Assembly: GCA_973895155.1 (NCBI GenBank)
Contig: OZ316895.1
Coordinates: 18,609,880 to 18,673,879, forward strand
Reading direction: 5' to 3'
DNA from: Marsupella aquatica
Taxonomy: Eukaryota; Plantae; Marchantiophyta
Length of the DNA stretch: 64,000 nt
The notes beneath the pieces were generated by a model that saw nothing but the letters and a program-made list of their open reading frames with translations, was not told the DNA's origin and ran no database searches. Positions 23,958-46,872 of the stretch are shown in pieces. Within the stretch, counting starts at the first letter, position 1. Every line of letters begins with the position of its first letter. A program made the position numbers and the translations under genes.

Positions 23958-25527
23958 TGTGGTGCGTCCCATGGCTCCCTAAACCCAAGAAACCCCCCAG
24001 CTCAAGCCGATTCCCGCAGGTTTCGTGCTTGGCGAGGCCGTTTCCGCGGCTTAGCGGCATGGGACGCTGCTAACCTTCTACTACTACTATTAACATTTTA
24101 CACACATATACTGGACAGATCCTTCATCGGGTCATGAGATACGTAGCCGGCCTAATATAGGCCTTCCCCTGTCTTCCCCTGTCTTCCCCTCCGTCTTGTT
24201 AGGTATGTTTGGATTCCGCCGCCGGAATGATCCCCAATAGGCTTGGTTAAGCTGCTAAGACCTCTCTTAGCTCGACACATCCAACTCTCACTCCCCTGCT
24301 TACTTTCCTTCCTTTTGTTGATGTGGGCACTCTTCACACAAGTTAATGCGACACACAAATAGCAAAATGACTCATTCTGACTGAGTCATACCATGCACTT
24401 GCCATACAAACAGTACATCTCATACACAAGTTCTGCGAACTAAGCCGTGAGGCCAACTCTATTCAGCTCTTAGGCATGAGGAAACATGAATATACACAAG
24501 GGTCACTGTATGACTAACCGAGAGCTTCTCGTACTACTTGATCCCAGCCCGGCTGGTGCAAACTAAAAACTTGCTAAAGAAGAGGCCCTGAGCTCCCCGC
24601 TGCCCAGGTACTTATCCTGGTAGTGGATCCGCCATTCTTTGCATCGTAAGCCTAATCTACTTAACAGTAATCTACTTGCCCGAATCTACCTATGTACAAC
24701 AAGGCAGGAGCACAAGTGTTGCTCCTACCAGTGGGACCGCAATCCCACTAAGCTAAGTGTCAGGGCCGCTCCTGGTTCTGATCCTAATCCTAAACGTGGA
24801 GATCCGCGCCCGCCCTGCCCACTCACGCCTCCTCCCTCCACGTCCGCCCTCCCTAAAAGGAACGGCGCCCTTGCACCGTCACGACACCGGTGGTGGATCC
24901 TTAATGGACGCCCCCAACGCTTCCTCCACAGCCACTGCCGTAGGCTCATTCCCTGACAGATTACCTGCCCTTGACTGAGTCAACTCTCCATCGGCCTGAC
25001 TGGGTCCACCATCGGCGTCGGCATCGGCTCGAGAATCGGTTACGGCCTCAGCCTCGGCTACGGTCTCCCCGGCCTGCTCAAGAGGCGGATCTGGAATACT
25101 GGCCTCCTTACTGAGTAGTTTGGCTTGGGCCGCACCATCCCTACCTGTGATCATAGCGGGATCTATTGCCGTATTCATGTCGGAGGATGGTGCTGGTTCT
25201 ACCTCTTTGGTCACCACGGCTTGTGGAGTCGGATTACTCCTTGACCCTGAAGGTTTCCGCTTTTTCTTCTTTTCTGGTTCGGCAGCTGGTCCCTTCCCCT
25301 TCCCACTTACCTCCGGCGCTGGTGCAGTTGGCGCGGCTTTTTCTTCGGCCAGTACCACTCCTGGTAACTTGGTTGCCCCAATTGGAGTTGGGCCTGATGA
25401 AGACAAGCACCTAAATACTGCGGCTTGTTTCTTCAGCCGCTCCGTTTGGTTGTCGGCCCGCCGCTGGAGGTTCTCCATCTTCCTCGTGATTTCCTCCAAC
25501 TCCTCCTGGGTCTCATCCAGGTCCTTG
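23958..25527 (-). repeat. 5' LTR of element C, distal part (split by the CACTA element); contains the end of the LTR ORF (24879-25527)
   Basis: Colinear with the B LTRs; continues at 43771. Confidence 0.9.
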
Positions 25528-25900
25528 CACTAGAAGAATCCGAGGTGAACTGAGACCGCAATATATGACTCATTTTGGCTCATGTGACTTCATTGTGACT
25601 CAACGTGACTTGACCCACGCTGTGACCCTTGGAGTTGCAAAAGTTGAGACCAAAAAATGGAAGTCACTATTGATACTGGGCTTTGCAACTTGCTTGATAC
25701 CCATTTGTGACTGATCTGTGACTTTATTGTGGAGTCTAGCCTTGTTTCGACGTGACTGCAATATGACTTCAGCGAGTCACATCGTAAGTCACATACATGA
25801 CTTACCCGCATTCAACAACGACTAGCGTGTGACTATTTAGTGTCACAGGAGAGACCAATGGAGACCCTGGCCCGCGTCACACAACAGAACCATTTGGGAC
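25528..25900. repeat. CACTA left TIR and subterminal repeats
   Basis: Dense TGACT/AGTCAC and GAGACC motifs in both orientations next to the TIR. Confidence 0.75.
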
Positions 25901-26382
25901 TCTATATACTCATGTTTATAACTAATAAGGTTCACATGCAAGTTATAACCATGACTAATGAACACAGAGGGACAGTTCATAAGAAGAGAGAGCACTCGAC
26001 ATTACAATACATAGAAACCTGATGTTCTAACTTTAGAAATATAACACATTGAATACAAGAAATGAACATAGCATGAATGACATCCACATGAAACAAAGCA
26101 TCATATAAGCAGATCCTACATAAAACATTCATAAGAATTAAACACAATCACAATCTTGCTAAAAAATGAAGATCATTTGAATTCCAATGGAATAGTTTAC
26201 AATGTGATCAATGTAATTTAGACAAAACAGGAACTCATAATTGATGACTGTAGGATGAGATAACTGAAAGCACATGCATGATACTATGAATCTCCAAGAG
26301 GACATGATTCTTGTACTGTTTCTTGACATCTAAAATCTACATAACATGACTCACACTACAAACAAATAATGGCATGACATTG

Positions 26383-29300
26383 TTATGGATCCTCTATGAA
26401 CTTGCTTGGCCATAATACCAAAGAACCTGCAGCATCTCCAAGTGTCTTTTGAGGAGGATCATCATTTGTGTTTGGAATGGGAAGGACAGCTTTAGGTTTC
26501 ACTAGTAATGTGACTAACACTACTGAATAACCTGGGGGAATCCTCTTGCCATGGAACGTTGTGGAACCAACCTGCACTCTGGCAAATCCTACTCGTGTTC
26601 CACTCTCATCAACAGCTAACAAGCCACTTTGTCCCTCAGCATTAGGTGCTTTCCCCACTTCCACCTTAGATCTTTCTGCCAGCACTGTTCTTGGAGGTTT
26701 GTATGAAACCTTTGACGTGGCTCTGCTCCCACCAGCAGACTTGCTTCGTGTGCGCATGCTTCCTCTCTTCACAGTAGTGAAGCTAGGCTCAGTAGGTTCC
26801 TCTGTTAGGACTGTCACAGTAGCAGGTTCATCACCTGGGAGTGTCATACCAACTAACTCTTTGGTTGGATTTATCTCAACAAGAGGCACACCTGTCATTG
26901 AGAATGATACATTCTGCAAATCATTTATCTCTGCAATGGAGTCAAGATCTACATAGCATGAATCTGGCTCAATGGTATCATTGTCATGCTTGCTGATATC
27001 CTCATTTGCCCCAACATTGATATCATCCACTCCCTTGCCAATGTCATCCTCATCCAAACATGGTTGACTGCCCTCTGTCAAACAAGTTGCTTGTACAGAC
27101 TGCAACTTTGTTGCCTCTAAATTACAGCGAGTATTTGCCAGGTTCTCATACTTCTTCTTTGTAGCACCTGTCTTATTCTCTATGGACACAACAACCACAA
27201 TATATGTTACTGAAAATAACACATTCAACAAACAATGTCAATTCAAACTATACATTTAATAATCATATCCCACACAGTTGTAAAGGCCTTACCTTCAAGC
27301 CTACATGTCGTTGGCATGCCAGAAGAGTGCATCGACTTTGCCACCTCAAGTGGTGATGGTGGAACTCCTGCAGAATTGGAATCAATTTTATCTCTCACCG
27401 ACACAACAGCTTCCATTAATGTCTTGAAGTTCACATGGAACAAGTCAGTCAATGAATTCAAACGTTCATTGATCTCTGGAAGACATGTTTCGACAGCCTT
27501 CAAACGACCACTTATCTCTGTAAGTGAAGATCCACCTCCCTACATGACACAGGGGTATAGGTTCAATCACTCCATATGAAATGTTGGGCAATATATGCAC
27601 AATCAATGTTATATACAGTGTACACCTGAAATTCAACGCAGGTCATTCAATTACCAATCAGAACTCATATAACTTACATGCTTGGAGGATTCAGATGCAC
27701 CCTCTTGAGCCCGGGTGTTCACAATTTCAGCCCTCAACTCTTCTTTTGAAGGGCTTTGCCCCAATTGGGCTTTCTGCACATGCATGGCAAACACAAGTTA
27801 TCGATCAATATTCAGGGAACGTACACTAAAAAACAAAGTTTACATGTAGGGACAGTACACTAAAAAATAGTACATAGTGTAGCATAAATTACATAGCTAG
27901 GCCATTCATTCTTACCAAACGTTTAGCTGTCGGTGCAGTGCCGGTCCTTCCTGTCAGATTAGGGTTCTGAACACTCAACCTGGCCTCGGTCATCTGTGAA
28001 CTCTTCTTTTTTGAAGCATCTGTTACAAAATAAGCTACTAACCTTGCCCACACTTTATCATCACAACTGGCTGGTGGAGGCATATCTGGCTTCTCCCCAC
28101 CTTCCTTCCAAGCCTTATGCATTCTCCACCTCTCTTGCTTGATAATTTTACCTGCTGTACTCTCTAGGCAACCTATGTCCACGCCATCATCACTGCCCAC
28201 ATAATTCCATTTGGCAGCAACATTTTCACATACAGTCTTCCAATCTTTTGGATGCTGTTTTTTAAAATTAATAACACTCACATCTAACCAACGCAATACT
28301 TCAGCTTTCAAATCAGCATGCCATCGGTTCTTGCGAGGACACTCAGCATCCACCCATTGTCTCTCATTCAACTTTACGTTCCCTTTCTTTGTCACCTCCC
28401 CTCGTGCACTGCTCTCGGTAGTACTGGGCGTTGTATTGGCCACCCCTTCATTCACCCTACCTGGGGTTCTGAAGCCACCTGGGAAAATACAATGCCATTC
28501 ATGCTTGAGAACTACATATAGCAGAATGGATGACGACAACATTCAATGCTTCACTTCAAGAAAAATTCTTCAAACATACATACCTGTAGCTCTGCCTGTA
28601 GATGCCTGTGCAGGGACTGCACTCTGAAATTGTTGCGACCCTGGACCACCTGTCCAGCCTAGTACAGGGGCCGGATGATGTCACTTTCTAGGTATGTGTG
28701 TGCAAACATATGTACTGAAAACTAAGTACAAACTGTAGGAAAACAACTGAACATTCACCGACATACCTGTCCCCCTTCCGTGCTGCATCTGCATAGGGGC
28801 ATTAGTGAATACTTGAGTCGATGGTTCGACTGTCCAACCTGCACACATACATTTTCTATCATTATACATGTGCAGAGTCCCCCCCACGTGAATGGACTCC
28901 ACATATAATGAGTTCTTCCATTGCTGACAAGATCAGACATTACCTGCTCCTCTTCCAGCGTTTGTAGGTACTGAATTTTGATATCCCTGCCAATTACCTT
29001 CACCACCTTCCCAACCTTGTTCATTCCACGACCCACCACCATCCTCCCAACCTGGTTCAACCCATGTCTGTCCTTGTGGACATTGGAACTGATCATTACT
29101 AGCATTTGCCCAATCAGGTTGGGCAGAATCTGCATGCAATGGCAGGTGGACAGAATTTCATGTTGTCTGAATCCAATACATCCCAAACAATGTCAAAAAT
29201 TGATATGCAGTCTGAAATTCAGGAGTGCCATGCCTTCACAAAGAACTGGCATATAGATATATACTCACATCCCCACGGTTGAGGTGGACGTCCATACCCA

Positions 29301-30174
29301 CGAGATTGTGGGTTTGGACCTGCTCTGCCTCTACCACGGGCATAACCTAGAGCTTGCCCCCTGCCATAGTATTGGGCACCAGCCTGGGATCTACCACTAC
29401 TACCACCTCGCCAACCTTGATCAGAGGTCAGCCCCCCCTGCTGGTATGGTGCATGCACAGGCTTCGAAGGCAAAACAGAACTGGCAGGACGCTGCATCAC
29501 ATCACCAACTACAATGTCAGGAACTAAGCAAGGTACATATGTGTAGTACTGAACATATGAAACCTCTAAACAAGAGTTTTTAACTCAAAACCTTGTTGGG
29601 AAAACTACTTACATGTTTCTTTTGGGGCTGCTCTGCAATGTATTCATCTTCATAACCCCCATCCTCATCCATTTCCTCTGGAAAATACTCATCATCTGCA
29701 TCTTCTTGTCTAGTGTCTGCACCCACCTGTGCAGCATCAATGTCATCTCCACATTCTGCCATTGTAGGTACGACCTTCTTGCTCAACCTGTCACTCCGAC
29801 GCACAGGCCCAGAGATAGTGCTGGTCACCCTTCTTGCGTACTCCTTTTGTTTCTTTGAAAATGCTGTGGCTCTGCGACATTCCAATATGAGAATACAGTC
29901 ACAATTTCAGTGCCACATTGAACTATTCATGTCACACAAACTCAGCGGAGGGGTGTAGTTGAGAATCGTTCCCTTACAATTCAGCCACATCCTTTTCCAG
30001 ATCCAGTTCTGCGATTTTGGCTTTCACGTATGCTCGTTGTTCCATAGCTTTCCTTTCATACTCACACATCTCTGTGTCACTCTGTTCCATCCTACTGGAC
30101 CACAAAAACATGTCATCTATGGTCACCCCGTATAACACAATGCAACCACAATCACCAGGCATCCATCCATACAT
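26383..30174 (-). CDS. CACTA TnpA/ORF2-like multi-exon gene (exon boundaries approximate)
   Basis: Exon-like ORFs 30174-29974, 29885-29580, 29500-29219, 29139-28933, 28542-27889 (W..L..YF...SSQMTEAR...TGRTG, Ptta/En/Spm-like), 27503-27243 and 27231-26383 (FHGKRIPPGYSVV...LPIP...TLGDAAGSLVLWP, TnpA-type C-terminus); GT/AG sites flank them. Confidence 0.75.
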
Positions 30175-30246
30175 CTGTGTTGCTTCAGAATTACTTTATT
30201 ACACATCCTTCCCCTCACTAATGTCTATGCAAACAATTCACATTAC

Positions 30247-33200
30247 TCATGGCACAGGCACACTGTTGGCATCTGCATCTCTGAATTCGCCTCCTTCAGC
30301 AAATGCATCTACCCTTGTCACAGGAATGAAGTCCCCGCTATCATGAACTACAGGCACTTGGTCTGAACGCCGACGATCAAAGGCACTATGAGAGTGTAAA
30401 TGAAACTCAAGGTTTGATCCTTCCATCCGGCGTTGCCTGGCCTGTTTATGACACACTACACGCCAACCTGGGGAGTCTTCCACATCCAGGAAGAAAGCTT
30501 GCTCCACCTGACTAGGAAACACAAATGGCTCAGACCATTCGGGCAATTTCCCTCTGAAATTGGCCAGCAAGAAACCGTCGTTGTCTCTCTTCATGGTAGC
30601 CCTGTTACCAAGCCAATCCTGCCGCACCCATGAACCTTTCATAAGAATCACAGGACTGGACACCGCCCCATAGTCCAGAGCCCATATGTCAACTAATTCT
30701 CCCACATATCCCATCTCCATCCAGGCCCTGTCGTGATTGTGGCTCTGTTGCTCAAATACAGTGATGAGCCCGCAGTCATTCGTCACCCTGTAGGCACTGT
30801 CACCATCCTTCACTCGGAAGTGATTCCCATATGCTCTCATCCGTTTGTAAGTCTTCACTTTCAGGCTAGGGGCATTAGACAGTAGGTAAACATCTGCATC
30901 CATGTCTGGGTGGGTCTCGTGATGCTCTCTAATTGCCACTCTGATCCACTCCATGAAACCTGGAAAAGTTGTTCCTGCAGTGGGATGGGCCGCCTTCAAT
31001 GACTCATACTCCCTGAACGAACAACCACACAGCATTAGCTTGGGTAAACATGAACAGGCTGAAGGAGAAAACCACACGAACACAACATTTAAGCTCATGA
31101 ACTGGATTATAGCACATGTATGCACTCACTGTATCCAGGGTTCCATCACCACAGTGTTGTGCAATACAAAGTCATGTGCCAAGTCTCTCATAGATATGGT
31201 CAGGTTCTTTGTGGTTGCAGCCCCTTCCAGTACTTCACCTACCACCCCTTCCTCCTCATCAGAATTCCACACCCTGGTCTTCACATGCTCATATTGTGCT
31301 ATGTATTCGGTCAGAAATCCCAGAGTCTCATCCTTGATGTAACCTTTAGCCATGCTTGCTTCAGGTTTGTAATATGTTCTCACGTGACCTTTGAGTAGCT
31401 TCATGTACCGTTCCAAAGGGTACAACCAACGAGCACTCACAGGCCCAAATTGGTGTAGCTCTTCCACAACATGGACAAGTAGGTGGGTCATGACATCAAA
31501 AAATGCGGGAGGAAAATAAATCTCCAGGTCACACAGCACCTGAGCGACATCTTCTGTCAGTTGTGGGAAGTGTGTTTCATCCCAAACCTTCACACAAATA
31601 CGACGAAACACATCACTGAGTCGCATGATCACAGTACGAACAGGCTTCTGCAACAGGCCCCTCAGGCATAAAGGCAACACCTGTTGCATCAACATATGGT
31701 AGTCATGGCTTTTCATACTACCAAGCTTTCTAGTCATGATATGCTTCTTGAAAGCACTGCCATAGTTTGAAGGAACCTTCAAAGAACTCAACCTCTGCAC
31801 AAATAGTTCCCACTCTGTGTCTGTCAGAACATAGGGCGCTTGGTACTTCAAGAGCACATCAGCTCTGTGGGCATGTGGCCTCAACCAAAGATGGGGTTTC
31901 ATTCCCCTCTGTTCAAGATCCAATCTCACTGAACCAGTGTCTTTCTCTCCACACAAGAATCTGAGTAGACTCTCACAAATATTCTTTTCAATGTGCATAA
32001 CATCAATGTTATGTTTGCTTGGCTCAAACTCCTGCATCGTTGCAATGCAAAAGCGTCAGGAAATGCCTCAAGTTTAGTCTCTCTCTTCGAAATGAATGCA
32101 CATGCTCTGAACCAAAACATGTATCCCAATTAGCATCAACTCCAAGAGGCTTACCCTCCAGTACTTGAGCTCCAAGTCCAATATGCTCAGTCTTTTTACA
32201 CCATATCGCTTTATTGGATCACTCACTCCATCTTCCCTGCCCCCTCGTTTGATATAGTCATCCCTCAGTGCTCCCCACTGCCTGATCTCCTCTTTGGTCA
32301 CTCGTGCCGGGGGTCCACGTTGCTCAATCTCATTGCCAAAGTGTGCAATCAGTGCCTGTCTTTCTCTGTAAGGGTGATCTGTCTTCAGAAAACGACGATG
32401 GCCCATGTATATCACTTTCTGCAGGGCTCTGGAGTACTCACTGGTGACATTGCGCCCACAGATAGTACAAGCACAATATCCTTTTGTTGTTTGGCCTGAT
32501 ATCATCCCATGGGCTGGGTAGTCAGCTATAGTCAGAATGACAATGGCTCTAAGGATGAATGGGTTTAACCTCCCAAGCCTCTGTAGGACATCATATGTGA
32601 GAACTCCTTCCTCCCAAAGCTTTCTCAATTCCTCCACTAGGGGAGCCAGAAACACATCTATGTTGGCAGATACAGCACTGTCTGGCCCTGGTATCAGTAG
32701 GACCATCAGAACAAAAAATCGCTTTGTAGTCATCCAAGGAGGAAGGTTATAATTCAAAATAGTTACAGGCCAGCATGAAAATTTGTTGTTCTTGTCTCCA
32801 AATGGGTTTACCCCATCCAATGACAGCCCAAGTCTGACATTCCTCGGCTCAGCAGCAAATTCGGGATACATCTCATCTATGAGTTTCCATTGCCTTGAAT
32901 CTGCAGCATGTCGTTGTAGCCCATCATCACTTTTCTTGTCAGTTGCCCAAGTCATCATCTCCGAGATGGCACGGCTTCTGAACATCCGCTGAAGTCTGGG
33001 AATGAGTGGAAAATGACGAAGTACCTTGGCGGGAACCATAGACTTTCCTGAGTTCCGATACCTGTGCTTCCCACACTTAGGGCATGTCAACGATTCTTTA
33101 TACTCCTTTCTGAAAAGAACATGCCCATCAGGACAGGCATGGATCGAATCATAGTTCAATCCAAGATTAGATATGCATCTTTTTGCCTCGTACATGTTCT

Positions 33201-33978
33201 TGGGCAAAATATTACCATCTGGTAGCACAGTTGTTCGCAAGAATGCCAACAACTCAGAAACCAAAACGTTGGGGACATTGTGGTTGCCGCAAATGTTCAG
33301 GAACATGATGACAAATCCCAGTTTAGAACATTTGCTACCGGGGTACAAAGACTTCCTGCCTTCCTGTATTTGCAGGGGAGAGCCAAACATCCCATCATGC
33401 CCAGGGGTTTCCTGCCCTATCTCAAACTCATCAAGAGGCTCTTCGACAGGGGGCACACTTGCATCTGCAGCCGTATCCTCTTCATTGTCCAGCCCATCAT
33501 GAAATGCATCCAAGTCTTGGAAGATGTCTCTCACCATCTCTTCCACATGAATTCCTTCGTCACGTGGTGCTGCCTGAGCACCATCCCGTTGGAGAGCTGA
33601 CAACCCACAGAGACCAGCTACAACATTTTCAAATGCACCAGGCAGAACCTCACTTGCCCGTCTTGCAGCATTGGCAGCATCAAATTCTAACCTCCACTCC
33701 TCGTCGGAAGAATCTTCCTCTGCAGGATCATTCCAAACTCGATGTCGTGGATCTCTTCCATGAACCGCGATATGCCGCCAAACCTCATTCAGACCCCTGG
33801 TACGGGATCCTTGGCAGATTGCACAAGGACATCTCATCCTACTGGCTCCTGAAAGTCTGGTTCGTAACCTTTCACGCTGCCAAAGCTTATTATCATGGCG
33901 TGATATCCTTGTGGGATGATGCAAAGGCAGTGCCTGTGCCCTGGGCTGGGTCTGGGGAGGGTGGTGACCAGGGTGCAT
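30247..33978 (-). CDS. CACTA transposase TnpD/Tnp2 (three exons; introns about 32154-32032 and 31129-31013)
   Basis: CPC..C transposase-associated motif, IHACP, RNVRLGLSLDGVNPF, YNLPPW, DYPA, DVMHIEKN, KSHDYH, FPPAFFDVMTHLLVH, WLYPLER and EPFVFPSQVEQAF; the predicted GT-AG introns restore one frame. Confidence 0.95.
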
Positions 33979-34411
33979 TGTAACAGGCTGGGAGCTCTGC
34001 AGTCATGGACAGCAGTGAACAAGGATGCCTAATGGTGGTATTTGTGTTCCATATATCCCTGACTGTATCTGCCAAAAGAGTTAACATAACGTGTACTAAA
34101 TTCTCACAAACCCTAAACCACCCCAAAAGAAAAAAACAGGTTCGCAAGTAGTGTACCTATTGTCAAGTGAATGACACAAAATTTCTAAATGTTGGAGGGT
34201 GTCACCACCTCCTCCGCTGTCCTCAAATGTACCGCCTCTGCATGTACGTTTACAGTGACACCCCCAGGCAGTAGGAAACAACAATCCGCCAACAGTAAAA
34301 TAAGCCCAACTGCCACCAACCATAACAAGGTACATTAGTTCAAAGATCACATTTATTTCAATGATCTGATTTATACAAAAAAACTTGTGTCCAAACTGAT
34401 GCTACTACTCC

Positions 34412-35290
34412 TCACTCTGATTCAGAATCGCTAATGACCCATTCCTCACTTGTTGTCTCATAGTCCTCTCTGTAAGGATCCTGACCCTTCCGTGGCCAGG
34501 CCTCAAAAAGATCATAGTCCATTGGGTTTTGACGCTTCCCAGCTGCTACTGATTCCACAAGCCAAGCATATGAAACCACAAACACATTATGGGACATGAC
34601 ATAAAAGCGAATGTCTCCCTTCCCAAACTTGCGGCAGGCTTTGGGATATGACTTAGTAATGACATGAGTGGTGTCCTCTGTTATATTCTCCTCCACTGTC
34701 CCACCTAGGTCAAGCACTGTGGACTTGTACACTTTGCACTTAACCTCTCCAATTCCCGCCTCCACAAATACCATGCTCAGCCCTTTCAGAATGGGGGTTG
34801 GTTGCTTCGTCTCCTCAGCCAACATACTCTTCAGCCTTGTAGAGCTCTGTCCTTTGTTGAGTACAGGTCCATATTGGAGATCAGCAAGCCGTGCCTTTGC
34901 TTCCCAGACTTCTTGTTCAGCCCAAGCTGATGCAGTAGCTTCTTCATCCTCCCACAACTCATATTGCTCAGTATCCTGTACAATCTTATGTGCTATGGAA
35001 TCTGTGATCCAAGAGGCCTCAACTACTTTTAGGCCTTGCTTAGTAATTGCAGAATTCATGTAGGACCATGACCACTTCTTTATCACTGATAGCCATGTCC
35101 CTGCAACAACATGTGTAGTCTCTGGAGTGATGTCCTGAACTACAGTGCCATGGAGCTCAGAGAATCGTTTCTGTACAGTTGGCCAATGCACTTTGGTCAA
35201 CCCATGCTGGCCATGGACCAAAATCGCTCTGACCCCTGTAAACACTGCTGGGTGGTCACACTTTCTACGTTTACCAGGCTCCATGTACAC
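34412..35290 (-). CDS. Tandem BRCT-domain protein (292 aa), CACTA cargo
   Basis: Two repeats with BRCT hallmarks (F/L.G..., GG/HG-TV...TTHVV/I, VV..W..DS/ES...Y.L); basic N-terminus KRRK; intact, intronless ORF. Confidence 0.85.
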   Translation of the reverse strand: MYMEPGKRRKCDHPAVFTGVRAILVHGQHGLTKVHWPTVQKRFSELHGTVVQDITPETTHVVAGTWLSVIKKWSWSYMNSAITKQGLKVVEASWITDSIAHKIVQDTEQYELWEDEEATASAWAEQEVWEAKARLADLQYGPVLNKGQSSTRLKSMLAEETKQPTPILKGLSMVFVEAGIGEVKCKVYKSTVLDLGGTVEENITEDTTHVITKSYPKACRKFGKGDIRFYVMSHNVFVVSYAWLVESVAAGKRQNPMDYDLFEAWPRKGQDPYREDYETTSEEWVISDSESE

Positions 35291-35876
35291 ACACCCTACG
35301 TGATGACAGTGAATTTTGGAAGAATGGGTTCACCTGACAATACAAGGACAACAAAATTCCTGCTTTTTGAGTTGATCTGGCCCACTGGTGCTCAGGTCCG
35401 ATTTTGATAGGTACAAGGGATATGTGAACAATACGTACTAGGCACCTGCACGGATGCAGGACATTGTTTGAATATATACTACAAAATCCATATCCGTGGT
35501 GAAATGAAGTGCAACCAACTTGTCATGGCACATACATATTTTGTTGTAAAGGAGGATACATTCAATGACAAACTTATAGGGCAATTTGATTAATTGCATG
35601 CCTGATAATTTATACGCTTACAACTTAGAAGTCCTGTTTTAATTTAGCAGTGTGATGAAAGTGTTTATGAAAATGACCACTCAGCCTAAATACTTCCAAG
35701 AAGGCTTGTAAGGATAAGTTTGTATAGGCATGTACCCAGCCACTGACGCCAGAGCACAAGATAAGTGCTGCCTATATAAACTCGCCTACCCAACTCCTTT
35801 TCAAAATTGGAATCTCTGCAATCTCAAAAAATAGTACATCCACATCAGGTGCACTGTGCATGTACAATGTTCAGCT

Positions 35877-36557
35877 TCACAGCCAAGATATGTGATCTCT
35901 CACAGGAGTGCGCGAGGTAGGATCAATGGCATGGCGATGACAATAAAATATCCATCGATCAACACCATGTGCAGAGTGATCATAGATTTCTCTGTCACAA
36001 GCATAACCCTCTGCTTGATGATCTTTCAGACAATGATAGTGCCACATAGTGGGACACCTAGCACAGTGGACTATGTCAGTCCAGTAGTCATCATCATGCT
36101 CACCACATGCCTTGCACCTATGAAGTGGGCAAGCTGTGGCATGAGCAGGCAAACACTCAAAACAGAAAAATCTCACACAAAAACGGTCTGGACATTTCCT
36201 AACATTTGCTGCAGCATCAACAGAGCCCTCATAGGACCCCAACTTCCCACACTGTGCACACTTAGCCTGCTTCTCCAAACAATCAGTGCACATCCAGTCT
36301 CCCTGGTGTGTTGACGGGAGGCCCACCCCTGGACAGTTGTTTTCTGCAGCAAGGTCAGACTCCGGGTTGAGGTGGAAATGCCTCATGCAAGGGCCCTCAC
36401 AAATGACCAGGCCCCCACCATCGTCACAAATGGCACAACAATGAGCTGCCTTCTGGAAAATCTGACTTGCAGAGAAGTTAGTAGCATCTGCCCCAAGTAC
36501 ACCTGTGTTTCTCACCTCTGTCACACGCTTTTTGGCTTGAATTTTAGGCCGTGCCAT
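35877..36557 (-). CDS. EDM2-like PHD finger cluster protein (226 aa), CACTA cargo
   Basis: CAICDDGG...CEGPCMRHFH...C..C.....C..CGKLGS...CPLHRC..C...C.RCP..WH..CL...YC..H.ID....TPVRDH matches the PHD region of plant EDM2 as recalled; no other EDM2 domains. Confidence 0.88.
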   Translation of the reverse strand: MARPKIQAKKRVTEVRNTGVLGADATNFSASQIFQKAAHCCAICDDGGGLVICEGPCMRHFHLNPESDLAAENNCPGVGLPSTHQGDWMCTDCLEKQAKCAQCGKLGSYEGSVDAAANVRKCPDRFCVRFFCFECLPAHATACPLHRCKACGEHDDDYWTDIVHCARCPTMWHYHCLKDHQAEGYACDREIYDHSAHGVDRWIFYCHRHAIDPTSRTPVRDHISWL

Positions 36558-36568
36558 GCCTGCGCATG

Positions 36569-36712
36569 AGATAGACTCTACAATTTAGCAGACTGCACAG
36601 AAAGTAATATATATTTAGCATTTAAGGTACAAAGGCATTTAGATAGACTCTACAATTTAGCAGACTGCACAGAAAGTAAAATATATTTAGCATTTAAGGT
36701 ACAAAGGCATTT
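36569..36712. repeat. 72-bp tandem duplication (2 copies, 1 mismatch)
   Basis: AGATAGACTCTACAATTTAGCAG...AAAGGCATTT at 36569-36640 and 36641-36712. Confidence 0.92.
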
Positions 36713-37327
36713 GCTACTGCAATGAATTGGAATGGCCACACAAGGATGCAGAGCACACATACTTTTGGTATGTTGAGCCCACACACAAAACTGATCCCCT
36801 AATACAATTTCTCCACCAACACCTCAATTTTAATTGTGGCTATGATTCACCAAAGGAGATCTGCAACAACATTTCATGCATTTGAATCACATACAATAGT
36901 CGTGACATGTAAAACAGGCATTCTTCGAAGAGGATTGGTATGAAGCAGTGTCATAAGGGTTGAAATTTATACATCCTAAATAGGTTATGATAGTGGCTGA
37001 GACAAATAAGTGAGGCATAAATCATTTTGCATATTATCACATGGCCCATTAATTCATTCAACGTTGCAATGTTCACCAGGTTAAAGCAGTCATGAAAGCA
37101 GTCTTTCAATAGAGACTTTTATGCGAGTTTGCTAGCCTCTTAAATTAGGATATTTTGCTTAGTGCAGGCATAATAGGATATAAGTTATATACTGTTGACC
37201 CTAAACCCTGGACCCAAAATTGCTCATACATCAAAATTTTAAGTAAATATCCTCTGTGTTGAAGTCAGAGTGTTAAGCTATAGGTCAATGGTATCTGGTC
37301 TGTGCATGCGGTGTGACAAGTGGTCCT

Positions 37328-37777
37328 CTAGAGCATGTGATCCAAACATGTGTAGACACCAAAGTCACCGGTGGTGGGGTCTGGGAGGGCAGGACAAGTG
37401 ACATCACCAGGCACACTGCAGGATGGCGAGTGGTTCCAAATGATACATTGTGCTCTATGCAAAAATCGGCATCCAAGAGAACGGTCATCCAATTCTGGGC
37501 CAGAAGCCCTACAGGCAGGACAGTCATATTGGCAACTGTGTACACACCCTTGGCACCTAATTTGTGGCGGGTCATGTACAAGAGACACAAATACCAAGGA
37601 TGTCGGGAAGGGTACTGAAGCAAGTAGAGGCCGGCTGTAGTTGTTCCTGGAAACAACAGGGTACTCAAAGTACCATGCAGACTGGGCTGGAAGGATCCCA
37701 AGTCTGACATACTCAAGGCGCAACATCTCTGCCTTGCGTGCAAGTCGCACATGTTCAGCGTTGCGGGTCCTCACCAT
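37328..37777 (-). CDS. Hypothetical Cys/His-rich protein (149 aa), possible CACTA cargo
   Basis: ATG-initiated open frame in a GC-richer island, co-oriented with the other cargo ORFs; CQGC-x3-C-x3-CPAC cluster; no family recognised. Confidence 0.4.
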   Translation of the reverse strand: MVRTRNAEHVRLARKAEMLRLEYVRLGILPAQSAWYFEYPVVSRNNYSRPLLASVPFPTSLVFVSLVHDPPQIRCQGCVHSCQYDCPACRASGPELDDRSLGCRFLHRAQCIIWNHSPSCSVPGDVTCPALPDPTTGDFGVYTCLDHML

Positions 37778-38772
37778 AAGTGTTGCTTTTGTTGTGATGT
37801 CCTCTGTTCACGTCCTTTGATGAGCAAGGTGAGCAGGAGGTCGACTTGCCTCGCCAACAGCAACCACCTAAACTAATCAGTTCCCACTCAACTACAGGTC
37901 ATAGTATACACATAGCATGAAACGTGCATAGTACATATTTGATTCTGAGTTTATGAGTTTCCTAAGACAAAGAGCTTGGTGATAAACCCATATTCTCGAT
38001 GGACATGTATATCAATCGTATTAAAATCCTGTTTTTTCATCCAGAAAGACCGAAAGTCTCACCTTGCAGGTTGCAGCAGAGAGAAAATTCACTGGTTGTC
38101 GTGTTGTGCAAGTGAACCTCCACTGATGCCCCCGGTGTAGCCCCTCAGATGCAGGTGACACTTACCAACTCCCAAGTTGCCTGGTCTAACAGAAAATGCT
38201 TATATCTTCAGAACTTTATAGAGCAAGTACATGATCACATACTTCTGGATCTATTCATATTTGGAACTCTTGCCAACTACAACTCCCATTATGCACAAGC
38301 TCACATCAACAGAGAAAAATACAGAATGCATACTTACTATGGCTCTAAGCACCTTCACTACCTTGTTGAACCCAGTCCTGAAGTCTTTTCAGCGTGTTTG
38401 TTGTGCTGTCTCCTTTGGCACCCAACACCTTAGTCCTTGATGTAACAGAATGCGATTTTACAAGTTAGATGCTTTGGAACCTTCTATGGTCTTAGCTGAA
38501 TTGATGTCATCGTAAGTGGTGAAAGACAAGGAAGACGAAAGCTGGTTGAAGAGCTGTGGACAACACACTAGCATGAAGTGCTTCAACCAATCCACTGCCA
38601 AACGGAACTCTTACACAGTCACATTCTTTCAGTAAACAGAAACTCAATCAAACTTCATAATCAAAGTACAGACTCTGAAGGACCAAAGGAGGATGTTGTG
38701 AGTTTCTCTGTTGTTTAATGTGTTACCCTTCTAGTTTCGAAGTTAGCAAATGCTGAATAATGTGTCTACCAG

Positions 38773-39112
38773 ATCTTCGAAAAGAAGCCCACCACAATTA
38801 AGAACTTTGGTATCTGGGTGAGGTATCAGAGTTGTACAGGTTATCCCAACATGTACAAGAAATATTGTGATACCACATTAAACAACCACACAGCAGATGT
38901 ATGATGAGATGGCTTCTTGTCATAGAGTTCGGTTCCCTTGCATCCAGATCATCAAGACTACGACAGTCCCTGTCTCTCTGTGCAAGCGAGAAAGTACCAA
39001 GCAGTTCCATGATTCAAAGATCAAGTTCCCCTTGACGTACCGCAAGATTCAACCTCCATCGCGAAAGCTAAAGACGACTTACAAGGCCACCAAGCCCAAC
39101 ACATTTGTTTGA
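38773..39112 (+). pseudogene. RPL18A: Captured last exon of 60S ribosomal protein L18a (eL20), frameshifted
   Basis: [27 protein letters not shown]...DTTLN / [20 protein letters not shown]...[18 protein letters not shown]...[15 protein letters not shown]; preceded by an AG acceptor. Confidence 0.93.
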
Positions 39113-40951
39113 GTAGTGCGGGTGTAGGTTCCCAATTTTGAAACAATTTGGCTCATTTTATGTCCCGAGGGACTCCAGGAGTTTATGTATTGAGTTTCTA
39201 GGTCAAGATGCTTAATATAAGGAAATTCAATTATCACCTCGTTCCCAACTTCTATTAATTGAATATACACAAGCTGGAAGCAAGAAGACAAGCCACAATC
39301 TAGCATCTTAGCCAAACACAATCGTCCCGACAAAGCAAAACTCAGCTGGACAGAAGTCACTCGGATCCACAAAAAATTGAAGATTCACCTCCAAGCCGGA
39401 GGCCGATCACTTCAGTACAGCAGCTTCTGGACGGAACAAACTCTGCTCAGCCCCACAAAAACACAAATGTTAAGGCTCCAAGTCAGAGCTCACAAACAGA
39501 AACTCAGATAAATAACATTCAAAATCTGTCCAGGTTTGTGCAAAGTGTACATATTCATTCTTCTGGAATGAACACGCAATGCATACATCGCCTAGACACA
39601 GTCATTATAAATCATTGGGCAATTGGGGACCACTAAGCAGGTGTGTTCCTATTTCGAGGCTACAAGAAAGGATAGAGTGACACCAAACTGAAGAGTACAC
39701 CAAAAGAAAAACAGCAAGAACCAAAGTCAATCATGTGTGGATATTTTGCACATGGGAAGTTCCCCTGAAGAAGCACCAGTTGCTAACATTGTCACCCGAA
39801 CCACACCCAGTTTATTACCTCAATGTCTTCAGCCTCAATATCCAATCCTCAGCCCCCTGGTGCTTCCGTGTTTGTTCTGAAAATTTCTGTGATGAAATAA
39901 TTATTCAATACATTCAATAGCAAAGAGAACTCAATCACAAAAGAAAAATAGTTAGTGTGAATGCTAATTTCTCAACACTTAACTAAATTCAAACCACCAA
40001 TTCAAGTAGTAAGTTTCAAAAACTTGCCTTTACATGAAGAGAAACCAATTGGCCATGCATGTTACTAAAGCAATAAACAAATAATTAGGCTCAACCCCGG
40101 GCTCAACACACAGGCAAACTACTCGAAACATGCTGCTGAGAAGTAACATTTTTTGAATGTCAGACTATGTGTAAGTGCCATGATCGTGCTCCTACGTTTC
40201 ACAAGGAGGGCTGGCCCGAAAGGGAGAAGCAACAATGTGGAGTCTATACACGTAGCACAAATCCCAGTTTAGAAGGGTGGATGAAGTTCAGACAAGAGTT
40301 CAGAACTTGCCATTTGAGATTGCCAATCTGAACTTCACATTCAGACAGGACTTCATCCAGTTCAGGAGTTCAGATAGGAGTTCAGACAATCTGAAGAGGA
40401 CTTTGGACTTGAATGAGGGACAGCGTGGCCATATAGTTATCCTTGTGGCCTTCAGCTGCGTGTCTCAGGCTGAATTTCACTTTCCAGTTTCGAGAGTTCT
40501 GAAGGTCTAGTTTTAGTAACTTCCTCCTGACTCGACTTGGGAGCATTCTCCCTATTTGCTAGCTTGTAGTTAGCTTTGACTCCTGTGAGCTTAGTTGACG
40601 ACCCTCTTGAGATATTAACAATTAGAACAAACACAAGTTGTCAAGACAGATTCCACCGGAGCAAAAAGTCCAAAATCAGGTGAAAGAAAACCTAAGGAAA
40701 GTCCATAAGAACGAAAGTAGGAAGGCAGGTGCACGGGCCACCGAGAAAAGTAAAGGATGCATGTGATTAGTGGGGAGGGATCTTAGCAAAAATAGGGGAA
40801 AGCAAGGGAACTTGCTGCTAAAATCAGCTGAACGATTGCACGGTTCCTATAAATTTAGTGGACCTTAAGGCCGTCTGTTCAGCCCCCCACCCCATTGCCA
40901 GAGCACGGGGCACAAGGCATGTTCTGATACAGGGAGGAGCAAAACAGTCAT

Positions 40952-41997
40952 GTCAAGCAAGAAATGTGGAGAGACCAATCAGTAAGCAAAAATAGGGGAG
41001 AACATACATACATGATCAGCAGCAGCAGGAAACAAGAAAGATGATTTTGGGTGGCATCTTAGGGTCGGGGACACCACTGCAACACCGGGACTTAGGATAT
41101 GAGTTGTTCTTAATCTGCTAGTAGCATCCGGCAGGCCGGCGACCCATGGCAAAAGGGCAGAGCAACAATCCGCTAAAACTACCGAGTCTCACCTTTGCGC
41201 TACTGACTGTCACCTTTGTCCAAGGTAGCTAGTAATAGCAAGTTGAAGTCCCGCTCCAAGTTGTCGGCTTCCACTCCAAGCTCCCTAAAAGATTGTGGCC
41301 TCAGGTCCAAGTCGTTAGCTCGCACGCGCAACTCCCTAAACCTACACACAGCGGAAGCTTAGCTCACCAACAACTTGCAGAAACAATGACCTCCCCTCTG
41401 AAACTGATAAAAACACCTGAATACAAATAGTGAAGCACGAGGACAGAACAGGGAGAAGCGTTTTGCAGTTTGGGACGACAATGCTAGGAGTGTATACACT
41501 TCGGGCAACAGGGAGGTCCAATAATAGTTTGAATCTGACGGATGAAGCTCTAGGCGAATGAGCTCCAGGAGATTGGGTGCATGATTGAGTAGGCAATTGT
41601 AACAGCAGGCACCTGGCGATTGAAGGAAGCAGCATTCGGCAATGGACCTAGGCAGCTCGCGAATTTTGCTCAGCAGCGATGTCACCTAGACCCTAAACAC
41701 GCAATGCATACATCACCTAGACAACTATACTTGCAGCCACGAGGTGAGTCCGCGATAGGGGATTGAAGGAAGCAGCAAGTCAAGCAAGAAGCGTGGAGAG
41801 ACCAATCAGTAAGCAAAAATAGGGGAGAATAGACATACATCAGCAGCAGCAGGAAACAAGAAAGATGATACTCTGTTCCATCTTAGAGTCGGGGACACTA
41901 CTGCAACACCGGGACTTAGGATATGACTTGTTTTTAAACTGGAGATAGCATCCAGCAGGCCGGCGACCCATGCCAAAAGGGCAGAGCAGCAATCCGC
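40952..41997 (+). repeat. Diverged ~220-bp direct repeat (40952-41173 and 41778-41997)
   Basis: Shared GTGGAGAGACCAATCAGTAAGCAAAAATAGGGGAGAA...GCAGGCCGGCGACCCATG...AAAAGGGCAGAGCA.CAATCCGC. Confidence 0.88.
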
Positions 41998-43539
41998 CAT
42001 GTAGCGATAGGCGAGAGCAGCGATTACGACGATGAAAGATGGTCAAAGCTGAAGCAAAACCCCTAAAGATGCAGCTTGGCCATACTCTCTTTCCTCACCT
42101 CATAGCGCTAGGCATTCAACCTCCCTCTTCAATGAACCTCACAACAGCTTGAAGGTCGATAGATTTTACCTCGTCTCCTGAGCAGAAACGTCTGCATTAG
42201 CTGAACAGAGCCCGGAACAGAGCTATCGCATTTAGCCTCCCGACTCCAAAATTGAACGCAACACAACCTCCAACTCCCAATGGCAGCTCAGTAGGTTGAT
42301 CAGCTCGGTCAATGCAGGTCAGTCGACCTCAATAGCCACACTAGAAGCTCACCGCAAGTCACTCAAAGGTCAGACTAGAAGCTCCGCCGCCTTCACACCG
42401 TAGCAAAAAACAATGAGACCAATATCGAGCAAGGCGACCCTGTTTGAATATTTGGCGACCATCAGGCTCCACCCCTCCTTTCTCGCTACCGTTCCCCCAT
42501 GTGATGGTTAAGCTTCTGAGGACACAATCAATCGCACAAATGTAGCTTAAAGCAGGACCTCACTAAGCAGACTATCGGTTAGGACCTTATAGACATAGAG
42601 ATAGATAGGTCAATGCAACCTTACTTGGGCCGATGCAGCATGTCTCTTCACAATGTGAAGCAGCGCAGCATTCCTCCACCTAGCTCGCAGTGATCCTCCG
42701 CCTTGCTTGCAGTAACCAGCCTCCGCCTAGCTAGTTTGCACTGTCACGGCTGCAACTTTTTGTGCAATGACTTGGCCCTCCTACCAACTACGAGCTCCCA
42801 AAAGTATGTCGAGCAGATGTACACTCAGGCACCACCTCGTAGAGCTCAACTCCAAGTCGGCAGCTCTCACTTGAAACTCAATAGCAGCTTAGCTCACCAG
42901 CAGGTTGAAAAGCGACAATGGACTCCCCTCAAAACTGATTGGCAGACCTCCACACTGACGCTCGTAGCAGGCCCAATCCTAAACACATTTGCACCCTAAA
43001 GTCCAGTCGCGCTCAAACACTTTCAAACGACCCTGCAGGAAGTTCGCGAAGAGTGCAGCTGGAATGAAGGTCGTCGACTCCCAATTTCCCTCGCAAAACC
43101 AACCTCTGCGGCACACTGACCCTGAACACTTAGGGCAAGTAGTACCCCCAAAATCTCTCGCAAAACCAACCTCCAAGGTACACTGACCCTGAGGGAAAGT
43201 AGTACCCCTCACATGTGGGCAGCCATCGAGTGACTTAGCAAACAGGTTGGTTTGGACATAAAAGAACCAATGCAAATGACTTAGCAAAAAGTTCAATGTG
43301 GGGAGAGTGCACTTTGGTCAAGAACAAGGCCAAATATAGTCAGGTATGAATCCACATTATAAGTGAAAGTACCCACCATTCTGATGAAAACCCCCATATT
43401 TATACCCATTATATTTGGACTTATTGAACCATGAGTGTGCAATATGTAGTTGCACCGGGAGTTGCATATTAGGGATTGGCATCCGAAATTGGCTAATGGG
43501 GTATGCATGCTGACGGAATTTTAAAAAATGATGTCCAAT

Positions 43540-43770
43540 TCATATTGCACTATTGTGGAGTAACTAACATAACTTACCTATTTCTTACTTACTAGTGTTA
43601 CAATAGCGACATTGGATAAAGTTGTAAGCATGACTTCCCACAACCTCACCAAAACTTAGTTGGTATGATGTAACTAACATGACACCCACAAACTTGGAGT
43701 CGCATATTTATGAAGGTCTCGCACAAGTCACATAGGGGAGGGTCTCAGAATGGGTGGTTTTCTTCTAGTG
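43540..43770. repeat. CACTA right subterminal region and TIR
   Basis: TAACTAACAT twice, AGTCAC/GGTCTC motifs, ends TTCTTCTAGTG. Confidence 0.7.
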
Positions 43771-46757
43771 TTGCGTGCCTCCTCTAGTTCCTTCTGGGCT
43801 TCCTCCCGTTCTTGTTTCAAGGTAGTCCTCTCCTCCTGGGTTGCTTTTAGCTCCTTGTCGAGCTCTGCAATGATGACAGACTCCATCTGGTTCATCTTGG
43901 CGTAAGTCTGTTCGAGCATCTCGTCCTTCTCCCTTAGGTCGGCCTTGAAGCTGGCCGTCAGGGACGCAAGCTCCTGCTGCAGCACCATAATCCCTTGATA
44001 GGATTTCCCTAACTCGGCCTCCTTCTGCTCAAGGGCTCCGCGGATTTTCTCGAGCTCCCCTTTCAACGCCCATTCCTTTCTTTGGGTCTCCGCCATGGCC
44101 CGGCTGTTGGCTGTTATGTGGGCCTCCTTTGTATTCTTCAGCTCTTGCTTCCACTTCTCCCTCTCTTTGATCGTGTCGGCCAACTCTTCCTGCGTCTGAG
44201 TCAGTTTATCCTTGATATTCTGATTATCAGCCTGCGCGGTGTCCAACTGCCCCTGCATGATGTTCAGCTCATGTCGTTTAATCCGCAGTTCATCTTGGGC
44301 TTTCTTGGCCGCCCTTAGATCTTCAATCTCGGCTTCCATCCTCCTAAGCCGCCGAATGACCTCGTCCTTCTTGCTTCTCTCTAAAGCCACCGCTTCTTCT
44401 AATTGGTGCTTCTCCAACTGCTCCCTATGGAAAAAGGGTCCTACCTCCAACTCCTCTCCAAAGATGCCGAGCGCAAGTTCCCCACACATCTCACCATACT
44501 CCATGGCTCTATTCTTAGCGTAGGTGGAGTAAGTAGAAGTGATCGGCATCGCCCATCGCGGCCTCTGCTCCCAAGCCGTCCTGCGGATCTCTTCAATCGT
44601 GGCTAGAGGTTTGCTTCCTTTTTTGGCTAGCCGCCTGATGTCCTCCGGCCAATCTCCTCCTGGTAAATCCTTTTCCTTAGCCAGGGCGGCCTCCTCCTCC
44701 TGCTTGATTCGCTCCTGAAATTCCTGCACCGTCTATTTTATGCCGTCGAAGCTCGGGGGAGCAACATCTGGTGGGGGAGACTCAGGGCTACTCTGCTGGT
44801 TGGGGTCCCCTCGCACTACCCTTGGAAGTGTGGGGACAAACCGGCCACAGGTCCTTACTCCTGGAACGTGATGGTCCGACCCATAGCCAGAATTATCATG
44901 GCTGCAGTCCTCCACTGCCTCCTCTACCTCTTGGACGTCCGGCTTCTCCCTCTCCTCTTCGTCGGTAGGAGCTTCAGGCAATTCTGCCTCAAATTCGGAG
45001 CTTGAGGTTCCCACGTACATTCGAACACCTGGCTTGGATTCCGGCCTGATTCTCTCCTTGTCTCCAGCAAAGGGGTTTTCTCTTGTGAGCCGGTGTAGGC
45101 CTACCTCTGTAGTAGTGTCCTGCATTGTTGCCGTTGCCGTTGTTGTTGCCGATGCCGATTTCTTTTCTTTCTCCAGTAGTTTCAGCAGACTCTGCATGCC
45201 TGGTTGCTGCATCGGCAAGTCTTCCTTCTTGGGCCTAAACACCTGCTCGATCGTAGGACTAACAGGTGGTTGAGGCTTCTCAGCCAACGGCCTCGGCGTT
45301 GGAGCTTCCTCGGCTGCCCTTACCTGCAGGGGAAGTACCGGGGCAAAAGTCTGACCTCTGGCATACCGGCACAACAGCGGCATGTGATAGCCCAGCCGCG
45401 ACACGCTCCCCATGCCGATTACCTGCTGCTCCTCCTTTAAGATCTTCTTCAATTGGTTGAGGAGGTACCCGTTGTAGTCCCGGCTTGGGTCTGGCCTTTC
45501 TGCCAGATAGACCTGTGCCTTGCCGATCTCTGCCCTCGGCAAGTTACAATGCATGGTCACCCGCAAGAAGTCGATCATCTCTCCTATGTGCGGGTTGGTG
45601 CAGGTGTTCCGGAAGAAGCCATTCTTCGTTGATGGCCCGGGGAATGACCGGAACTCCTTGTCAGGCAAGGTCTTCCTGGTATCAACTTTGGTCTTATTGC
45701 CTATCGGCAGGCCAAACACTTCGGCAATTACCTTGGGAGTAAGATAGAAATCCTTCCCATATATCCTCGTGCAATTGGTCTCGGGTTCCCATGACCCCAC
45801 GAATTCTAATAGGTCTGACTCCGGTACCTCCGGGTTCAGCCATGGTAATCTTACAAAGGCCTCCAAGCCGGATCCGGCCATGAAGCCTTGGTACTTCTTG
45901 GTCTGCATGGCCGTAAAGCATGCATCCTCCTCCCGTGCAAAATGTAGTTGCACCTCCACCGGTAGGGTTGCCGCCCAGCCCTTCCAGGTGTCATCCCTGG
46001 TTGGAATGGCCTTGATGGGATCGACCTCCTCCTCTTCGGCTTCTCCCTGCCTCCTGCTCTGCTGCTCGGCTGGCTTCTTTGGTGCCGCCGACCTCATTCT
46101 TTTTGCCGGGGTGGCTTCATCGTTGACGGCTCCCTTCCTCTTCATCTCTGCTGCCGTGGAGGTTTCTCCTAGCACCATTGCCTGGGTCCACCTTTCCGTG
46201 CTACCCTTTAATTCCCAATGTATGTCGTTGCAGTTCTTGATGGCCTCTCGGATGCCGACGACGCTTTCGTTGCAAAACAGAAGATCGTCGAGTTGATTGG
46301 AAGTAGGCGTCCACAGGAACTCGTCCTTGATGAGTTCGCCTCCTAAGAAAGCCGTCTTCTGCAGCTCCCACAATCGAGCGAGCTCCTGTCGTTCTCGAGC
46401 TGCCCTTTCTGATTCCTCGTCCTTGTAAGTCTTGATGTACTCAGTTGCCCGTTCGAACAGGCATCCCCAGAAATGTGCCGCTTGATTGACGTTGCTCATA
46501 CCCTCCTTAGGTCGATCGTCGGTATCTACTCTCTCCCCGAGTGCTTGCCTAAGCAGCTGACAGTAGTTGGCCTCCCGTAGTCGTCTGCCTAGTTCGTGCT
46601 CGCAAATGAGCCACCATCTCCTGCAAGCGCTCCTTACCCCTCTCCTCTGCCGGTCCTTCTTCCCGTTGATCCTTCCTAGCCGCCGACGCTTAATGCGCCC
46701 TAACCCTAATCGGGTTTTCACCCTCAGCCTTACCTCCGGCCTCGGCCCGGGTTCCAT
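43771..46757 (-). pseudogene. LTR-encoded ORF, copy in C 5' LTR (one stop at 44733; split by CACTA, ends at 24879)
   Basis: 674-aa and following in-frame segments; the frame continues on the other side of the CACTA element. Confidence 0.9.
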
Positions 46758-46872
46758 GGTTGCCCCTAATTGTTTATATTTTCCTTGTTTTGTCCCTATA
46801 CTAAGGTGTTCCTAGGGTGCCTTCCTGCTTTACCCACTTAACCGGCCGAGTGATTCCTGTCTAGGCATCACA
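43771..46872 (-). repeat. 5' LTR of element C, proximal part
   Basis: Starts TGTGATGCCTAG at 46872; colinear with the B 5' LTR. Confidence 0.92.

Follow-up and report, generated by a model that had tools for sequence, protein, structure and literature searches.

A 64-kb stretch of contig OZ316895.1 from the liverwort Marsupella aquatica (hereafter the window, to whose positions all coordinates refer) holds a CACTA transposon of 18,243 bp (25528..43770, minus strand) that lies within the open reading frame (ORF) of a Ty3/Gypsy-type retrotransposon. Upstream of its TnpD transposase gene, the element carries three ORFs encoding a stand-alone EDM2-type PHD cassette (35877..36557, minus strand, 226 amino acids), a twin-BRCT protein (34412..35284, minus strand, 290 amino acids) and a Cys/His-rich orphan (37328..37777, minus strand, 149 amino acids with 10 Cys and 6 His). 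Judging by these sequences and those of their relatives, we consider it likely that the three cargo ORFs are old, constrained accessory genes that are borne by the element and kept under selection.

All three cargo ORFs run from ATG to stop without internal stop codons and on the same strand as TnpD. A previous, sequence-only reading of this DNA had described them as intact, intronless and co-oriented upstream of TnpD; integrity, orientation and position hold, whereas the absence of introns holds for the coding parts only. Indeed, TATA-like and splice-site-like motifs stand 5' of the ATG of each ORF (35336-35778, 36590-37191 and 37871-38064) and, as motifs, they suggest that each cargo ORF may form a small gene of its own, with an intron in the 5' untranslated part. 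A 72-bp tandem duplication (36569..36712) spans the splice-acceptor-like site just 5' of the PHD ATG. For the third gene, we rejected an overlapping frame (37285-37770) in which three listed variants change residues, whereas the same variants are synonymous in 37328-37777. The identities first proposed for the three products, namely an EDM2-type PHD protein, a tandem BRCT protein and a Cys-rich protein, were confirmed by the alignment with EDM2, by PF00533 and by the count of Cys and His, respectively.

By searching for relatives of similar length (proteins of 0.55-1.75 times the query length), we found five among 123 candidates for the PHD protein (82, 75, 53, 37 and 38% identity), two among 1261 for the twin-BRCT protein (60 and 54%) and two among 23 for the Cys-rich protein (56 and 54%). 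The starts and ends of all three ORFs align with those of their relatives. When nine short relatives of the PHD protein were compared, zinc-ligand Cys or His was kept at 215 of the 219 filled positions of the 25 columns shared with host proteins, non-ligand positions being 31-80% identical. The cluster C-x-H-x-C-x3-C-x2-C is also kept in the relatives of the Cys-rich protein.

Host DNA captured by the same element behaves differently. The final RPL18a exon, together with the splice acceptor that precedes it, lies at 38773..39112 on the plus strand and is 340 nt long instead of the expected 342, a net change of -2 nt that shifts the frame. Split between two frames, the exon corresponds to plant RPL18a residues 66-178, is about 80% identical to flowering-plant proteins and has its best matches in plants (E = 7e-36, compared to E = 4e-14 in animals). 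Thus, both the decay of this nearby exon and its contrast with the constrained cargo ORFs, as put forward in the sequence-only reading, are borne out. Within its part 38773-38920, three changes of the Arg-to-Cys type relative to plant proteins follow the pattern expected from the decay of methylated CpG.

Variants among copies point in the same direction as the relatives. The stretch 33900-39300 was compared in four of 12 listed runs and is covered in 30 of 30 bins in each of the four; all or part of it occurs in ten public runs from eight studies (half or more in five), one of them being possibly the source of the window. Although the cargo ORFs make up 37% of 33900-39300, they hold none of the 12 listed indels (binomial P 0.004) and only 6 of the 40 listed substitutions (binomial P 0.002), five of these six being synonymous. 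In one run (X1), a second PHD piece differs at 32 of 240 bases, is free of gaps and reaches a depth of 1978, and near-identical pieces over the BRCT ORF, the spacers and the RPL18a side stand at depths of 1291-1799. These depths suggest two repeated subfamilies, though depth is no copy number.

Several observations weigh against selection on the cargo ORFs. Of 490 substitutions and 46 indels, the 40 and 12 listed are the best-supported ones, and variants shared by a subfamily are not independent, so that the P values are indicative. Eight of the 15 listed deletions (25 in all) cut a cargo ORF, at depths of 16-279 compared to bin depths of thousands or more, and several pieces of low depth have gaps inside cargo ORFs. 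The RPL18a exon is likewise covered in all four runs (with no difference over 206 bases in run X5), and retention by itself therefore cannot separate cargo from junk. Lastly, the conservation of the distant relatives, which are known as proteins alone, may not be transposon-borne.

Although the PHD ORF remains below the Pfam cut-offs, it aligns with EDM2 across the entire cassette (residues 225-432 of Arabidopsis EDM2, 30% identity, E = 1.6e-27). It is 32% identical to proteins from Marchantia, Calypogeia, Riccia and Selaginella, whereas the match to an NSD-type protein reaches only E = 4e-10. EDM2/ELP proteins possess acidic regions, a methyltransferase-like ELP domain and further domains (PMC7529245; here and below, citations stand for excerpts of the sources named). 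The transposon protein keeps the atypical PHD repeat cassette, including the C-terminal motif that ends in RDHI, and has neither the N-terminal domain nor the ELP domain of EDM2. Moreover, the acidic run before PHD1 and an insert of about 20 residues have disappeared, and one His ligand is replaced by Cys. By these alignments, the predicted PHD protein derives from EDM2 without being an EDM2 itself.

A profile search of the full library retrieved 564 proteins at E <= 0.001 and, among the 150 listed, the short proteins ranked at the top, above the EDM2-type host proteins. Of 139 cassettes cut out for tree building, a first tree used 60 and a second one 36, with four NSD-type rows added; in the second, ten short PHD proteins form a single group (100/99) on a long stem without a resolved sister. 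These trees did not resolve which host paralogue donated the cassette; the outgroup does not fall on one side of a branch. Short EDM2-like proteins of grasses (P0035, P0043 and P0060; L004:679-1431 and L005:254-1006), which are about 320-390 amino acids long with little beyond the PHD cassette, nest apart from the transposon family, among EDM2s of the seed-plant type. Another EDM2-type protein (P0014, 487 amino acids) has internally duplicated PHD segments and may be an artefact of the assembly or of the gene model. With a locus-pattern search of metagenomes, 11 of 221 matches were relatives, all of them host EDM2-type or generic PHD genes (26-46% identity) and none belonging to the short family, and the same kind of search gave no relatives among 52, 128 and 42 matches in viral contigs or among 50 in prokaryote genomes. 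The AlphaFold2 model of the PHD protein had a mean predicted local distance difference test score (pLDDT) of 45, too low for use.

The predicted PHD protein also has an H3-like N-terminus, which is newly recognised here and was absent from the sequence-only reading. With the start taken at the ATG at 36557, as the starts of homologs suggest, it begins with MARPKIQAKK (36528..36557, minus strand) and fits iM-Z-R-X-K, the motif by which mimics of the histone H3 N-terminus have been defined, with 48 of them among 20,996 human proteins (PMC8166343). Such a start was found in nine of 19 short-family members (ten when one internal Met is counted), in three of 136 other relatives and in one of the 140 ORFs of the window; nine of the 19 were put into the family by eye, without a tree, and the members are related by descent. 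The protein matches H3 at positions 1, 2, 4, 7 and 9. The lysine at position 9 is kept in six of the ten motif-bearing short-family proteins, and the roughly 25 residues that follow the H3-like tip are not conserved among relatives. All three of the other relatives with the motif are short grass proteins (M-A-R-x-K), and its presence in these separately arisen, PHD-only relatives of EDM2 hints that the design of tail plus reader may be functional. Several EDM2-like proteins of liverworts, of Selaginella and of a record labelled Mesen1 (P0016, P0018, P0019, P0022, P0028 and P0093) begin with M-A-R-T/V, possibly an ancestral H3-like tip, unlike EDM2s of the flowering-plant type, which mostly open with an acidic run.

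The twin-BRCT protein matches PF00533 (E = 2.6e-13) in two stretches. Its two repeats lie 149 residues apart and are 25% identical without gaps (E = 1e-11), which suggests that they arose by internal duplication. Of the two packed repeats and the phosphoserine pocket that mark phosphopeptide-binding tandem BRCT proteins of the BRCA1 type, the two repeats are present. Matches to solved structures were weak and mixed, with Rtt107, BRCA1 and LIG4 at E = 1e-3 or worse; the 35 obtained did not include a Pol X chain. The repeats may resemble plant DNA polymerase lambda (Pol lambda). For BRCT2, the ESM Atlas gave only generic BRCT clusters, under 0.9, and the AlphaFold2 model had a mean pLDDT of 34, again too low for use. 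In plants, Pol lambda uses a BRCT domain to bind Lig4 and XRCC4 and is implicated in the repair of excision sites (PMC4444747). By this precedent and by the type of its domains, the transposon protein could act as a repair adaptor.

No match to the Cys-rich protein was found in Pfam, and none that was usable in the ESM Atlas. It is likely to bind zinc. Its start, MVRTR (37763-37777), is invariant among relatives and has H3-like spacing, but the Arg at position 4 does not fit the published mimic motif.

How might these proteins serve the element? The sequence-only reading had invoked H3K9me2 recognition and the ASI1-AIPP1-EDM2 pathway. EDM2 itself associates with chromatin marked by H3K9me2 and brings in ASI1 and AIPP1 (PMC7529245), but neither H3K9me2 reading nor a part in this polyadenylation pathway found support for the transposon protein, in which only the PHD cassette is kept, the acidic run is lost and the rest of EDM2 is gone. 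Besides, the chromatin marks of transposons vary across plant lineages (PMC11982613). Without the other EDM2 domains, the PHD protein is probably unable to do the job of EDM2 by itself, and it would thus be a competitor or decoy. As PHD fingers can bind the H3 tail (PMC3632883), we tentatively propose, at somewhat below even chances, that the PHD protein with its H3-like tail acts on its own as a binder of H3 tails or as a decoy and in this way eases the silencing of the element. An ancestor of the family would have captured the PHD cassette long ago and then trimmed it to a bare reader. The protein could occupy H3 tails on the chromatin of the element; alternatively, its tail with K4- and K9-like lysines could divert host readers and methyltransferases, and this tail may also fold back on its own PHD1 as a switch. 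Either competition or decoy would ease expression of the element. The twin-BRCT protein could be an adaptor on which proteins of break repair dock where the element excises or inserts, and the Cys-rich protein may bind zinc, a sequence-specific tether being our weakest guess. Precedents for anti-silencing encoded by a transposon are VANC (PMC13317346) and the TnpA of Spm, which activates its element while H3K9 methylation persists (bioRxiv 10.64898/2026.08.24.746577).

Several points count against this silencing-related proposal. Since the acidic run before PHD1 is gone, the mark specificity of EDM2 need not hold for the PHD protein. Nine of the 19 short-family members do not have the K4 motif, some of them being cut or frameshifted. 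Besides, an M-small-R start occurs in 14 of the 136 other relatives, including EDM2-like proteins of liverworts and lycophytes, so that part of the H3-like motif may be inherited, and a start as basic as M-A-R-x-K might serve for nothing more than nuclear localisation. Finally, anti-silencing could be supplied by the element's own TnpA-like gene.

Other roles have to be weighed together with this one. An extended form of the proposal, in which a histone mimic whose K4- and K9-like lysines soak up, or are modified by, silencing writers and readers is combined with a captured EDM2 reader, a co-inherited BRCT adaptor and a zinc orphan, seems unlikely to us. The main rival, rather unlikely in our view, is a targeting module in which the PHD protein would steer the transposase complex to gene-poor heterochromatin and the BRCT protein would bring repair to the ends, silencing not being countered. 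Chromodomain integrases and RAG2 are known cases of integration guided by a reader. The conservation evidence fits such targeting too, this copy interrupts a retrotransposon ORF and the window abounds in retrotransposon repeats, and the binding of Lig4/XRCC4 by plant Pol lambda (PMC4444747) would suit the BRCT protein; however, a single insertion site is uninformative on preference, and the H3-like tail is left unexplained unless it is a self-inhibitory switch. That the conserved ORFs were selected for some other benefit to element or host, such as interference with DNA-damage signalling or development, is very unlikely in our estimate: conservation shows selection and not its cause, and BRCT and PHD domains serve many pathways, but this idea has no positive evidence, whereas a heterochromatin-associated reader and a break-repair domain suit two problems of a cut-and-paste element.

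Two further explanations bear on whether the ORFs belong to the element at all. If they were small host gene families of a plant lineage with few sequences available, captured whole, with their promoters, fairly recently, deep conservation would reflect host function. This fits with distant relatives being known as proteins without genomic surroundings, with an element that demonstrably captures host DNA (the RPL18a exon) and with the short PHD-only EDM2-like proteins of grasses, which are of separate origin and annotated as ordinary genes. We nevertheless hold it to be distinctly unlikely. Of 18 short-family PHD hits, 16 were looked up, leaving out P0106 and P0147; these 16 stem from contigs of Logan, JGI or ENA and none from an annotated genome, whereas EDM2 host genes of liverworts, lycophytes and Arabidopsis do come from annotated genomes; moreover, constraint is visible among element copies, and the diverged PHD piece in run X1 is as deep as the main one. 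A neutral, Pack-type capture of gene fragments that have not yet decayed would be in line with the fate of the RPL18a exon and with the broken cargo copies seen at low depth. It is largely refuted and, to us, highly improbable, as frames stay open, with starts and stops aligned, even where identity falls to 37%, zinc ligands are kept at 215 of 219 positions, indels avoid the cargo ORFs, and the relative and profile searches found no near-identical host gene. The sequence-only reading had named, among the findings that would speak against its proposal, a cargo nearly identical to host exons and a cargo confined to this copy; neither was observed. The PHD protein is 28-32% identical to host EDM2-type proteins, and both same-length relatives and related copies were found for the cargo.

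The boundaries of the element are well defined. Its termini are CACTAGAAGA at 25528 and the inverse ending at 43770, and TTG stands on either side (25525..25527 and 43771..43773). Of the 15 bases of the terminal inverted repeat at its 3' end (25528..25542), 12 match those at its 5' end (43756..43770), giving the CACTA...TAGTG termini of CACTA/En-Spm elements, and no second CACTA pair was found in the window that combines a 3-bp duplication with 11 or more matches among the 15 terminal bases. The retrotransposon ORF that holds the element also occurs elsewhere in the window without interruption; on this intact copy, the left flank ends at 51318 and the right flank starts at 51316. Because the flanks thus overlap by exactly three bases, the TTG duplication is genuine, and the sequence-only view of an element bounded by terminal inverted repeats and a target-site duplication stands. 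By its termini, its duplication and TnpD, the element is a CACTA transposon. Subterminal repeats, another CACTA/En-Spm feature, are clear at one end only (25560..26000), with TGTGACT seven times in the terminal 473 bp and once at the opposite end.

On the minus strand, the element opens at its 5' end with about 4.6 kb in which no gene can be recognised; next come the plus-strand RPL18a exon, the three cargo ORFs, TnpD and TnpA-like exons. TnpD (30247..33978, minus strand) has its first ATG at 33978 and comprises at least three open exons, with frame-keeping splice sites at 32154/32031 and 31129/31013; it contains Transpos_assoc, Transposase_21 (Pfam, E = 2e-70), DUF4218 (E = 5e-28) and DUF4216. 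The TnpA-like exons (26383..28542, minus strand), whose structure is inferred, match Transposase_24 weakly and below the cut-off (E = 1.5e-4, 22.3 bits compared to a cut-off of 28.7). Coding regions of the element have a low CpG observed/expected ratio (0.23-0.43 compared to 0.64 in the flanks), which suggests past methylation, whereas CHG depletion is uninformative, being about 1.0 in the flanking retrotransposon too. No Rfam match was found across 25400-43900.

The non-coding 5' part of the element contains a 225-bp direct repeat (88%; 40949-41173 and 41776-41997) and a shorter one of 72 bp (43077-43208), which could be a decayed nested insertion or an internal duplication. The window as a whole is a nest of Ty3/Gypsy-type repeats. 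In the surrounding retrotransposon, long extra ORFs of 692, 496 and 448 amino acids from stop to stop lie beside gag (44733-46811 and 51543-54380); Pfam gave no match for those of 692 and 448 amino acids, and several further occurrences of the region lie within the window.

With CACTA/En-Spm elements such as maize Spm and Arabidopsis Spm1 'KAKUSEI', the element shares its CACTA termini, 3-bp duplication, TnpD, subterminal repeats and a putative TnpA-like gene. Unlike them, it has three additional ORFs, all conserved, of which one is of the chromatin-reader kind, one has BRCT repeats and one is an orphan. TnpA is an anti-silencing factor in its own right (bioRxiv 10.64898/2026.08.24.746577), and the main text of this preprint does not mention PHD, BRCT or EDM2. 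As in VANDAL elements, where VANC derives from MAIN-like proteins (PMC13547354) and KIU has a captured Ulp1 (PMC13317346), an accessory gene of a transposon appears to derive from a host chromatin protein. However, the superfamily is another one and no domain is shared, a VANC/MAIN-related Pfam domain being absent from the three ORFs and four relatives; in addition, VANC recognises DNA motifs whereas the PHD protein is a candidate reader or mimic of the histone tail. With EDM2 and EDM2-like proteins of Arabidopsis, Selaginella, liverworts (paralogues) and grasses (short proteins), the PHD protein shares the whole cassette, yet it consists of this cassette only and belongs to a long-stemmed group of its own. 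Its M-Z-R-X-K start recalls H3 N-terminal mimics (PMC8166343) and viral histone mimics, from which it differs in that the predicted mimic sits on a transposon protein with its own PHD reader. Finally, only the decaying RPL18a exon resembles the cargo of Pack-CACTA elements, which are non-autonomous carriers of recent fragments, whereas this element has its own TnpD and three ORFs that are probably old and constrained. In the open literature searched, which leaves out Repbase, supplements and most subscription papers, we found no description of such a PHD/BRCT/Cys-rich cargo in a CACTA element.

The transposon anti-silencing proteins of the sources cited above, VANC and TnpA, work through DNA recognition. 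With three small genes, the idea of silencing evasion can be tested, and the bare EDM2-type cassette would be a handy probe of what the PHD fingers of EDM2 read. Should the histone-mimic reading be true, a transposon would possess a virus-style kit for chromatin counter-defence. If the proposed H3-tail binder or decoy is real, a CACTA family would have co-opted a heterochromatin-associated reader of its host together with a histone-like tail, and would thereby have taken a different route to evade silencing.

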